Of a stretch of DNA of 64,000 bases, positions 23,678-55,139 are shown one piece after another. The notes below the pieces were generated by a model. It saw nothing but the letters and a program-made list of their open reading frames with translations. It did no database searches and had not been told where the DNA came from. The stretch comes from Ginglymostoma cirratum (taxonomy: Eukaryota), in the NCBI GenBank assembly GCA_024137785.1, contig JAHRHZ010000018.1, positions 35,628,166 through 35,692,165 of the forward strand. The letters run 5' to 3'. How positions within the stretch are numbered: position 1 is the first letter of the stretch; the number at the start of each line of letters is the position of its first letter. The position numbers were made by a program, and so were the translations under genes.

Positions 23678-23857
23678 TAAGAACCAAAAAGAACTGCAGA
23701 AGTTGGAAAAAAAAGGAACAAAAACAGAAGTTGCTGGAAAAGCTCAGCAGGTCTGGCAGCATCTGTGAAGAAAAAAAAAATCAGAGTTAACGTTTCAAAT
23801 CTGGTGACCCTTCCTGAGATGCTACCTGCTGAGCTTTTCCAGCAACCTCTGTTTTTG
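23678..23857. mobile_element. Penelope-derived fold-back mini-element
   Basis: Arms CAAAAACAGAAGTTGCTGGAAAAGCTCAGCAGGT and ACCTGCTGAGCTTTTCCAGCAACCTCTGTTTTTG are reverse complements. Same family as 37915-38140. Confidence 0.8.
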
Positions 23858-24399
23858 ATCACAGTGCCTGCTTTCAGGGGCTTACCAGTTTATCCCCTAT
23901 CATGTTACGCGAGAGGAAAGACAGTATATGGGGGGCTAGCTTAGGTAAACCTTTTAATCACCTTGTGTCACAAACATTATGTTTCATAGCTATTCTACTC
24001 AATCGGCGAATAGCCCGAATGATCAAGCAGACAGCCTGCTGATAAATAGACAAACAGTGCTCTTGTTCCAAATTATCAGGTGAATTGTACCGTTATCCTA
24101 CCTTAGAGCTAATTTAATTAAAACAAAATGTGTTTACCTTTTTCTAAAATAGATGTGCCTTTTAACACTGTTACTTGCATATATATTTTGCCCTTCAGAC
24201 ACTGAGATGCTTACGCTTATTCAGCCGACTGATGTACATCACTTCACCTTTCCAAAAGTGCTAGACAAGTGCTGCTAGCATTAGCATCGCTGCTGAGGCC
24301 AGCAGCAGAACTGGGGAGACTTTGGAGTTTCCACACACGTAGATGTCAATACAGTGCCTTCTCCATCATCAGCACTAAATTCACTTTGATGCCTCTTTT

Positions 24400-24730
24400 C
24401 TTCTCTTTATTGATCCCTTCATGAGAACGTAGATTTGTATCTGTTAATTAATGCATCCTGAAACAGCGTTTGTATTAATCAGTCAGATAAGAAAAATTGG
24501 ATGCCTGCGCCCACATGACAACCGTAAAAGTGCTGTCCTGATAAAATCATTGATAGGCCTCAATAAAAAAAAGTTCCTCCTTCCACTCAATAAACTAATC
24601 ATCCTGCTTTTAATTATTAGACTGAAGATGTGTGTAGATTGGGAATGTGTAAATCTAATTATTTACCAACAGCACTGTCTAGGTAGGGGGAGAAAAGGCT
24701 TCATCATAGAAAGGTGCTGCAGGCTACGCA
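24400..24730. promoter_or_regulatory. Candidate conserved non-coding element
   Basis: Unique-looking sequence between two transposons, rich in TAATTA/ATTAAT and GATAA motifs. Confidence 0.4.
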
Positions 24731-25139
24731 TCTGGTATTTCTTTTGGGTGGGTTGAGTACTCAGGGTGTATAACCAACAAATTAGCCCTTTTTCATATCC
24801 CATTAAATCAGATGTGAAGCAGTAATTTTATTCGCAGGTTGTACCCTGATTATAAAATATTTCTCAGAATCTTCAGAATTTGAAAAGTGAATGCCTCAAT
24901 ATTACCAAACAAAGTGGCAGCATGCATCATGGCAGCGAACCATCACAACGCTTGCAATGTTAGGTTATGTTTGAAGACCTTATGGTGCAGATTTTGGATA
25001 AAGTTACTGTAGGAAAAATCAAAATCATTTGAGCTGAATTTTCAGGGAATACAAATGTGCTGAGGATTCCAAAACACCATCCTCACTTGTGTGGTAAATG
25101 GTGTTGGCAGCCACATTGCTGAGTACGTCTGCATGAATG

Positions 25140-53249: not shown

Positions 53250-54420
53250 CACCAATGCAGATCAATAATTTCTTCACTTTTAGCATTAACATAAGCTACA
53301 TTAGATTTAAGGATATTTCTCTTTGGATAATTTCTCATCAGCTACTTGAAGTTGTTGCATTTCCTCTCTGTACGCTTTTGCTGAGGTTTGATGTTTTAAA
53401 CATGTCAAGCTCATGATTGCAAAGATTTGTTGCATATGATTGGCTCAAGCCAATGCAGTCATGGTGCCGTACTCATTGAGTGAAGCTTCAATGGTCTTGA
53501 AAATGTTTTAAAGTACTGAGATATCTTCCTTTCATGATTTAAAATGCCTTTCTAACTCCGTGATTCTTGATATCACAAATTCTATGGTTACTTTATTGGC
53601 TGTAGAAATTTCTGAAGCTTCAATTGCTTTCATTACTAATTGAAGTAAAGGGAGATTACTTTCTTGCTTCCTAAAATTTCTTGGAAGGATATAACTGTGA
53701 TTTCAGTTGTTGATATTGTATTTTCTGACCAATAAGGTGTAGGAAGTTCCAAAGCTTCGGATTTAAATAAATGAATGACTTGCGTGCTTGTTTCCTTCTC
53801 TGTAAACATATTCTGGACGAACAAACCATAGTCAGAATGTCTTCAAGTCACTGACCACCAACTTCTTTAGCATCATCCTTTTCCATCATTTCCAGTTTTT
53901 GTTTTGAGAAAAGTAGAGGATCTTCCCCACACTCTTGCAATGACAGGAAGGAAGCAATTTTGGTGCCTGCTAGCCAAAGAATGTCTTAGGTTGTGCAAAT
54001 AGCTCTTGTTTAATAAAGCATTGTAATAATTAGGAATTACAAATTCTCCATAATCTCTTTATTATTGTAGTGATGTGAACTGACACCTTATTCTCATTTT
54101 TGTACTTCCTGTGCCCCAAATGAAGGATATTCCAAAGATTGCCTCAACCATAATGTAGCGTCCAAAAGGATCAATACGTTTCTATAGTACATAATTTAAA
54201 ACAAGTGTTTCTGCCATATACTTTAATCTCTGCATGCCAAAATTAGCCCTACAGGACTGTACCATCAAGGGAGTCAAATTCTTGTTGTGGGCTAGTCACA
54301 TTCCTCTGGAAGATTTCATCATGCCCCTCTACTGCTGGGACTTCTGCAGACTGCTGATGGCTGTGTTTAATTTTTTGTGTTCCTGCTATATTTTCACCCT
54401 TGTCATTCATAACCTTCTAA
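53250..54420 (-). mobile_element. Possible ancient L1/Tx1-type ORF2 endonuclease remnant
   Basis: Minus strand RIDPFGRYIMV at ~54146-54178 resembles the L1 endonuclease DxxGRYI motif; the rest is very decayed. Confidence 0.35.
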
Positions 54421-54906
54421 AACTGGTTGGATTGGGTTTCATTGGTGGAGTTCTTTGTGGCTTGCTGATTTTGTATTTTCTGAATGTTTGTTCTTTCCCA
54501 TCTATATAAGTACTTTTGTATCTGTACTACTTTACTTAAAGTGGCCAATTGACTTCTTCCTTTTCCTAATTGTGTAGTCTGCTTTGGGCCTCCTCCTGCT
54601 CTTTCTTATCACCAGGTTTTCCCATTTCACAGGCCAGTGTCTATGTATGCCTCAGAGTCCATTGATTGTTAGCGCCTACAAATTCTGTGTTGCAATTTGG
54701 CTATTTTCCTCACCTCTGGGTTTATGGCTGGGTCTCATGTTTACCATCACTGGGGTTCACTACAAGTCCCTTAATGGCCATCTCTGGTTGGGTGGCTCTG
54801 ATCACTGTTATCACCATGTAGTAATATGGGATCAATGCTCTTCTGACTGAACAAAGGCAAGCTTAATTGAACATAATTATAAAAAGAAGACAAGACATCA
54901 TACTTG

Positions 54907-55034
54907 GAGATAGTAGGAACTGCCCATGCTGGAGTCTGAGATAACAAGGTGTAGAGCTGGATGAACACAGCAGGCCAGGCAGCATCAGAGGAGCAGGAAA
55001 GCGGACGTTTCGGGTCTGGACCCTTCTTCAGAAA
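54907..55034 (-). mobile_element. Single-arm Penelope terminal-repeat insertion with intact hammerhead core
   Basis: Near-identical to 37230-37359. Minus strand reads CTGAAGA-A-GGGT-CCAG-ACCC-GAAAC-GTC (55031-55004). ACATCATACTT flanks it at 54895-54905 and 55040-55050. Confidence 0.85.
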
Positions 55035-55139
55035 ATCATACATCATACTTAGATATCATACTTAGAACCTAACAGACCCAGGCTCTAGATGATCTGACAT
55101 CACTCCATTACAGCTCCTTTGCACAGCTCAGGATTTATA

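Follow-up and report, generated by a model that had tools for sequence, protein, structure and literature searches.

Short single and head-to-head insertions around a shark ERR-gamma gene as probable leader copies of a Penelope-like element

Insertions around the ERR-gamma gene and their parent element

We analyzed a 64,000-nt stretch of the Ginglymostoma cirratum genome (GenBank assembly GCA_024137785.1, contig JAHRHZ010000018.1, forward-strand positions 35,628,166 to 35,692,165; hereafter, the window, with positions counted from its first letter), which contains the last two coding exons of an ERR-gamma gene and a set of short, mutually related insertions. Those at 23678 and 30945 are intronic, the latter in the last intron, and the remaining ones lie beyond the stop codon. 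The insertions are copies of a 133-nt block of a Penelope-like element (PLE), probably made by a reverse transcriptase (RT) that ran off at the capped, uncut 5' end of its template, with both target strands probably primed where hairpins were formed.

A sequence-only reading of the window had listed eight such loci (23678, 30945, 36995, 37232, 37915, 42258, 45111 and 54907, starts that we retain as names), six of them described as hairpins. All eight are present and similar to one another by blastn and profile search, and a profile built from real copies recovered 13 arms in the window (nhmmer, E 3e-7 to 2e-30) but not a single one when the window was reversed; one of the 13 is an old copy, a ninth insertion in addition to these eight (Table 1). 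The hairpin count needs correction: we find five clean head-to-head hairpins, two single arms (42258 and 54907) and one longer, partly inverted element at 45111-46022. Compared with shuffled sequences, 23678, 30945, 37232 and 37915 fold far better (z -9 to -20) and 36995 weakly so (z -2.8), whereas the single arms gave z -1.1 (42258) and -0.1 (54907). The 45111 locus is not a mini-hairpin but the complex, approximately 910-bp 3' end of a coding element with inverted parts and an unreadable centre (N). Clear flanking repeats of 11-16 bp are present at five loci (37232, 45111, 54907, 37915 and 36995), the number reported earlier, and a decayed one (9/11) at 23678; a target-site duplication (TSD) was sought at 30945 and 42258 and none was found, the score used being one that 0.5% of 600 random flank-pair trials reached.

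A genome search seeded with the 45111 element turned up longer copies in which a GIY-YIG domain is encoded upstream, and a protein search returned 117,019 first-look candidates. One long locus (L212) carries a 795-aa open frame with an RT, the motifs KPADKGG (DKG) and YIDD, a linker and a GIY-YIG region, VVYCIRCTRCGLLYIGE; its Pfam matches to RVT_1 (E 9e-6) and GIY-YIG (E 0.009) are both under the curated cut-off. The frame combines a DKG-type RT with a C-terminal GIY-YIG domain that has two cysteines between GIY and YIG, as in endonuclease-containing (EN+) PLEs. Its RT-endonuclease linker includes a CX4CX2C zinc finger, CNRRKCYTC, which fits the CX2-5CxxC pattern reported as a feature of the Neptune clade (PMC8557442; here and below, published work is cited for the portions of each source available to us); Nematis likewise carries a linker motif. 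By these features, the parent appears to be a Neptune-type EN+ PLE.

At a second locus (L213), a 133-nt block at the 3' end recurs at the 5' end, from where it runs into the open reading frame (ORF), and the block with the 12 nt that follow it has 431 exact genome matches, against 0 for the control. The block comprises the hammerhead and a 34-nt tail and is both the 5' leader and the 3' end of coding elements. Long copies lead upstream into GIY-YIG/RT sequence in subfamilies A, B and C and in E (7/20 loci), and other EN+ PLE features are found as well, namely, an optional 30-40 nt tail, an inverted 5' copy and a variable TSD. The Penelope origin proposed from the window is supported by these long copies; independent insertion and mobilization by the RT/GIY-YIG protein are likewise supported.

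Ends and junctions of the copies

Positions in the block are counted from a base that lies four nt ahead of the hammerhead core (+1), so that the core begins at +5 and the tail spans about +99 to +133. An unselected sample of 140 stretches of 10 kb, taken at fixed offsets from 20 large contigs (75 were wholly N, leaving 622,938 readable bases), contained 187 arms, 104 young (subfamilies A and B) and 83 old (C, D and E), in 153 insertions, 112 of which are leader-only, including 29 leader-only hairpins. These counts correspond to about 245 insertions, and about 180 leader-only ones, per Mb of readable sample; scaled to 4.36 Gb, this gives, as an order of magnitude only, 1.1 million insertions, 0.8 million leader-only copies and 0.2 million hairpins. 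Young A or B copies were seen in or beside older C copies in four places (L101:9628-9936, L143:1723-1886, L143:3382-3593 and L175:8231-8527), a possible insertion preference for other PLE leaders.

The 3' ends of the arms are bimodal, falling at +93-106 and +128-142 (48 and 48 of the 104 young arms, 36 and 20 of the 83 old ones). The same TATCTC motif precedes both recurrent 3' ends in the window (45975-46021), and some copies end 4-18 nt beyond the tail, possibly reflecting a third, looser start zone. After omission of 20 arms that abut N or an edge, 167 5' ends (88 young, 79 old) could be placed. They pile up at -3 to +6 (40/88 young and 34/79 old, 74/167 together), with none at -13 to -4 and only five, one young and four old, in the window of +29 to +38 around the predicted ribozyme cut. 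The stop rate per nt is 0.06-0.08 at the pile-up vs 0.0003-0.002 upstream, where 17 young arms extend. Among 27 readable loci picked by the 5' part of the ORF, 10 end at -3 to +6, 17 inside the leader and none upstream; in a second set, of copies running at least 200 nt into the ORF, 8/15 stop at +1. The earlier suggestion of extreme 5' truncations is closer to the data than that of an independent family, but the ends are not random and gather at a start-like point.

This pile-up, just before the ribozyme core, is likely the transcription start, since a TATA-like box precedes it by 29-31 nt and an extra G often stands in front of it. The start region was read against the TATA and initiator consensus sequences: the box is at -31 in A, at -29/-30 in most C references and at -30/-31 in 16/19 E loci, and long copies have an initiator-like pyrimidine-A-pyrimidine at +1. 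The first non-parental base before the 5' end is G in 14/27 unselected and 19/36 other copies (p 0.005 and 0.0009, respectively, against 0.27), compared with only 6/32 at internal stops. In L1, such an extra G marks capped full-length copies (PMC11702581). An extra T after +1 was found in 17/57 copies ending there vs 0/61 that continue upstream, and in both A and B.

Several observations weigh against this assignment or against the broader interpretation. Seven of the 15 copies running at least 200 nt into the ORF keep an upstream pseudo-long terminal repeat (pLTR); these partial tandems are likely sources, and transcripts reading across +1 exist or existed, so a pause site at +1 would give a similar pile-up. 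Of the 64 young arms at risk, 23 pass +1, and 31/88 young arms end at +7 or later, inside the leader, so that ordinary truncation is also needed; moreover, the alignments fix the ends only to within a few nt, and less well in old copies. Only about half of the copies carry the extra G, the TATA box of the youngest subfamily is non-canonical (TATTTAT), and coding partners were shown for A, B, C and E, not for D. PLE promoters vary in type, that of a D. virilis element being internal and TATA-less (PMC2377424). Two RNA-seq runs, one of which gave only 16 and 37 reads, revealed no sharp starts or ends of molecules, which ordinary RNA-seq is not expected to show.

RNA-seq depth is equal on both mate orientations. 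In polyA reads, 1,624 loose ends lie before +2; GAT are the last letters of their consensus (agreement 0.36), and joints with a strand switch are clustered at +1. These reads probably derive from genomic copies inside host transcripts and, therefore, confirm the junctions but not the RNA start. As a separate observation, six direct doublets (L254, L255, L262, L272, L277 and L282) consist of a leader copy (+1 to +98 or +133) preceded by a second piece that also begins at +1 and ends 260-1490 nt into the element; they resemble the product of run-off and a subsequent jump to another RNA. In 50 reads, a comparable joint is seen in which one G separates the pieces.

We compared the arms of 38 head-to-head pairs, 34 from the sample and four from the window. 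A tailed arm is joined to a tail-less one in 34 of these, the other four, all old, have two tail-less arms, and none is doubly tailed. In 19/34 pairs (9/18 among young pairs), the tail-less arm reaches more than 5 nt further 5' than its partner. Each arm of such a pair holds sequence that the other lacks, as in the 37915 insertion, so neither can have been copied from its partner by fold-back. Partner arms have 1.19 rare variants in common per 100 nt, vs 0.21 for non-partners (46 pairs, 30 of them top hits of a search), and agree at 81% vs 60% of polymorphic columns; this excess of shared rare variants indicates that the two arms of a pair come from one template. Weighing against it, partner arms differ by 8.8 per 100 nt, and the shared variants could partly stem from conversion after insertion.

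All 38 junction coordinates differ, and the independent, self-propagating hairpin system that had been suggested fails on this point, having been predicted to show shared junctions. Junctions do recur among the 30 top hits (7 and 4 copies), in both A and B, but same-junction hits share only 0.08-0.11 rare variants per 100 nt vs 0.21 in non-partners; we rejected a hairpin lineage based on them, the hits having been selected by likeness to the query and sharing no excess of rare variants. A TSD of 9-16 bp flanks 21/31 young pairs, and in 16 of these 21 the tail-less end overlaps it by at least 1 nt (p 6e-5). These data are most simply explained if the two strands of a staggered cut were each primed, at about +99 and +133, and the cDNA ends then joined.

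The hammerhead motif and the route of copying

The predicted cut falls after GUC, at +32 in gap-free copies. In the window, the intact pattern CTGA-N-GA...GAAA-CG-T-H is found only at 45893 (+) and 55031 (-), that is, in two of the eight elements, and the first pair of helix I is broken in the latter. The motif claimed for most copies is decayed or absent in the other six (Table 1), GAAA having become AAAA in 37232, 30945 and 42258. An Rfam scan of the window gave no hammerhead match at E≤10, only miRNA-like matches to the hairpins, and the minimum free energy fold of one leader did not yield the hammerhead. Intact cores are present in 20/27 single copies of A, 3/23 of B, 3/31 of C, 0/6 of D and 1/1 of E.

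The majority sequences of A, B and C and the single E copy retain the CUGANGA/GAAA core and U16.1-H17, whereas in that of D (6 copies) G12 has undergone CpG decay; the subfamily majority sequences keep the bulge, G10.1-C11.1 and the ACGT palindrome of helix III. Stem II, for which all three variants described earlier are present, changes in a compensatory manner (pair 2 is G-C or A-T, pair 4 T-G or T-A), and helix I is ATTT/AAGT in A, AGTT/AACT in C and D, AGCT/AGCT in E and weak in B. The core, the bulge and the helix covariation point to a minimal type I hammerhead, as had been proposed. The retention of core, bulge, G10.1-C11.1 and ACGT, together with the compensatory changes, indicates that the hammerhead was under selection in the source elements. 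Lower decay of core positions in single copies (0.004-0.074 vs 0.059-0.169 in the flank) was rejected as a sign of selection, given that the choice of arms required an alignment running through the core and that subfamily polymorphism is part of the flank figure; decay at CpG sites in and near the core amounts to 14-36%. A further block of the leader, +50 to +82 (window 45938-45970; GATGCTGC...GACCTGCTG...TCCAGC), is conserved like the ribozyme core in all five subfamilies and is a candidate binding site for the element's protein.

In the mechanism that we propose, RNA would start at +1 from a TATA box that an upstream copy carries in its 3' end, such that the ribozyme would occupy nt +1 to +36, with the 5' strand of helix I as the first four letters. 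The template could be either full-length or a short transcript initiated at any 3' end with a TATA box. A dimer of the RT/endonuclease would cut both strands with a stagger of about 14 bp and prime near +99 on one of them and near +133 on the opposite one; if the leader copy is used, cDNA would be limited to 100-133 nt, with copying of the cap adding the G. The two cDNA ends would be joined by an end-to-end jump or repair, creating a new apex each time, and the resulting stubs, without a TATA box, would decay neutrally. If the ribozyme cut, the leader would lose a capped piece of 32 nt and the priming sites would be severed from the 3' end. Since most copied RNAs still carry +1 to +32, the copies suggest that the template is usually not cut by its built-in ribozyme. 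We regard such strong-stop insertion, with priming of both target strands by an RT dimer on the capped, uncut leader and run-off where transcription starts, as somewhat better than an even prospect.

A pause of the RT after the hammerhead helices or at the upstream pyrimidine-rich tract, creating a truncation hot spot on long RNA, is an unlikely account of the 5' ends. It would fit a stop at the 5' edge of the predicted ribozyme, the C-rich run upstream in A and B and the templates that clearly extend past +1; however, it explains neither the G excess nor the fixed TATA spacing in three diverged subfamilies, the same stop is used in C and E, both without the C run, and helix I, of only 2-4 bp, would be a weak block. 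The notion that the ribozyme sets the 5' end, either by cleaving the copied RNA or by closing a template circle at the cleavage site, as in a published circle model (PMC4209133), is hardly tenable: despite the conserved, covarying motif and the existence of partial tandems in this genome, few arms end in the cut-site window, and a circle has no end at +1. Neither RNA-seq run showed RNA ends at the cut site, a result that does not bear on ribozyme activity. Rare tandems may come from a minor circular route.

That the stubs are a self-copying non-autonomous family, either as hairpin units or as single 133-nt copies with an internal promoter in the manner of short interspersed nuclear elements (SINEs), is quite improbable. 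Their abundance (112 leader-only insertions in 623 kb), the leader being at least 10-fold deeper than its flanks in polyA RNA-seq, the recurrent top-hit junctions and the conserved block at about +50 to +82, which could be a promoter or protein-binding site, are compatible with this idea. Yet the unselected junctions lack the inherited apex expected of units resembling miniature inverted-repeat transposable elements (MITEs), same-junction top hits span A and B, the RNA depth on the two mate orientations fits passive read-through, and A, B, C and E, every subfamily tested, have coding long copies. Single arms, which lack the upstream TATA box, may be re-mobilized, but the stubs are most probably dead ends of Penelope-derived elements and not a separate replicating family. 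The overall interpretation drawn from the window is in part supported.

It is very doubtful that the inverted arm forms when one strand folds back and primes itself, possibly on an antisense template (PMC3846280). The shared template of the arms, the containment of the tail-less arm within the tailed one in 15/34 pairs and some apices that are short palindromes all agree with it, but 19/34 pairs have private sequence in each arm, the second arm has a fixed outer end, which lies at the tail boundary and overlaps the TSD like a priming site, and the 5' ends carry start signals of the sense strand. The three models make different predictions, and the counts from this very large insertion record favor two-strand priming on linear, capped, uncut sense RNA. 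If so, the stubs map the promoter, both priming sites and the template state in vivo, and the hammerhead is on the first 36 nt of an RNA that is mostly uncleaved when copied, which weighs against circular-template and antisense self-priming models. Stubs should be annotated under their parents, not as MITEs, SINEs or retrozymes.

The origin of the inverted repeats and tails and the role of the hammerhead are open problems in the PLE field (PMC8557442, PMC4209133, PMC11167929). The inverted pLTR, the one-sided tail and the pLTR promoter are already published (PMC8557442, PMC3846280, PMC2377424, PMC6765202). Known EN+ PLE insertions share with those described here the head-to-head, inverted, 5'-truncated copy with a one-sided 30-40 nt tail (PMC8557442, PMC3846280, PMC2377424), the variable TSD, heavy 5' truncation and partial tandems; they differ in that, in the shark, mostly the 100-133 nt block alone is found, at the high density given above and with a sharp 5' end at the predicted start, and the inversion has been ascribed in print to self-priming or endonuclease resolution. 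A literature search with most subscription journals, supplements, Repbase and Dfam outside it found nothing on shark stubs, start-site run-off or two-strand priming for PLE inversions; the layout is already published, and the copies are of value for the mechanism that they record.

The closest biochemical counterpart is Poseidon of the anole (Anolis carolinensis), which in vitro cuts and extends both strands from two internal starts bounding the tail; the protein is predicted to be a dimer, uncut RNA is the main substrate and cleavage is not needed (PMC11167929). The two RT starts, the extension of both strands, the hammerhead near the unit start and the uncut RNA match our data, whereas Poseidon has no linker zinc finger and its ORF begins inside the hammerhead; the available text of that paper describes priming without microhomology and covers neither hairpins nor leader-only stubs. 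L1 twin priming is similar in that the second target strand primes a second cDNA, the TSD is kept and complete 5' ends bear an extra G (PMC11702581), but the second L1 start adjoins the first cDNA end, producing inversion without large duplication, whereas the shark primers sit at fixed sites 34 nt apart and the same stretch is copied twice.

Metazoan PLE minimal type I hammerheads have the same core, bulged base before stem II, G10.1-C11.1, short helix I and palindromic 15.2-16.2 (PMC4209133). That study ascribed thousands of solo motifs and close opposite-strand pairs to truncated PLEs; in the portion available, sharks are unnamed and the position of the motif at the RNA start is not discussed, and its circle model misfits the 5' ends here. 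Their location at +1 rather than at the cut site argues, as far as the sequences go, against a circular RNA intermediate for these copies. Non-LTR retrozymes, reported from one chondrichthyan, are likewise non-coding, hammerhead-bearing and derived from PLE pLTRs (bioRxiv 10.64898/2026.07.22.740005), but they are head-to-tail tandems with at least two hammerheads, whereas the copies in the window are single or head-to-head, with mostly decayed cores; no such tandem is present in the window, and direct doublets are few elsewhere in the genome.

Features of the window and minor observations

Table 1. Features located in the window (a dot marks insertions with arms on both strands)
Feature	Position	Strand	Remarks
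Old single leader arm, C-type	21034..21134	-	nhmmer E 2e-12, blastn
Head-to-head insertion 23678, C subfamily	23678..23860	.	core decayed (CTCA)
23678, tailed arm	23678-23819	-	+4 to about +135
23678, tail-less arm	23817-23860	+	from about +54
23678, flanking repeat	23665 and 23858		decayed, 9/11
Exon, ERR-gamma ligand-binding domain (host)	30450..30716	+	PDB match E 9e-50, 87/89 residues identical
Head-to-head insertion 30945, D subfamily	30942..31182	.	stem II GAGTCA/TGACTC; GAAA decayed
30945, arms	30942-31075 (-) and 31083-31182 (+)
Last coding exon, ERR-gamma gene	about 33474-33720		six-frame motif scan
Head-to-head insertion 36995, E subfamily	36991..37125	.	hammerhead core absent
36995, tail-less arm	36992-37064	-	from +29
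36995, short tailed arm	37065-37125	+
36995, flanking repeat	36980 and 37122		13/15
Head-to-head insertion 37232, B subfamily	37230..37435	.	core decayed at CpG sites
37232, tailed arm	37230-37359	-	+2 to +133
37232, tail-less arm	37358-37435	+	about +21 to +98
37232, perfect 16-bp TSD	37216 and 37435		16/16
Head-to-head insertion 37915, C subfamily	37913..38145	.	core CTAA (broken)
37915, tailed arm	37913-38024	-	from +20
37915, tail-less arm	38040-38138	+	from +1
37915, flanking repeat	37896 and 38151		12/13
Single leader copy 42258, D subfamily	42258..42392	-	+1 to tail end; GAAA decayed
Element 45111, 5'-truncated, 5'-inverted 3' end of young coding element, A subfamily	45111..46022	+
45111, sense part	45727-46021	+
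45111, perfect 14-bp TSD	45097 and 46023		14/14
45111, TATA-like box TATTTAT	45858..45864	+	31 nt before predicted start
45111, predicted +1 (45889) and intact minimal type I hammerhead	45889..45925	+	core from 45893
45111, about 34-nt tail between two recurrent 3' ends	45987..46021	+
Single leader copy 54907, B subfamily	54906..55036	-	+1 to +133; core intact
54907, 11-bp TSD	54895 and 55040		11/11

The 54907 copy begins G-ATTTT, with both the extra G and the extra T, and short tandem duplications of target sequence (ATCATACTTAG) lie beside it at 55037-55066. Directly upstream of the 42258 arm, at 42393-42405, the opening bases of the leader are present once more as a short copy. In the 45111 element, the inverted part on the left (45110-45219) starts about 94 nt upstream of +1, which is not a usual start site, and its inversion resembles twin priming. 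Unrelated to the PLE copies, an AT-rich 98-bp near-perfect hairpin with 48-nt arms (83%) at 3352-3449 is possibly a MITE or the remnant of an old DNA transposon.

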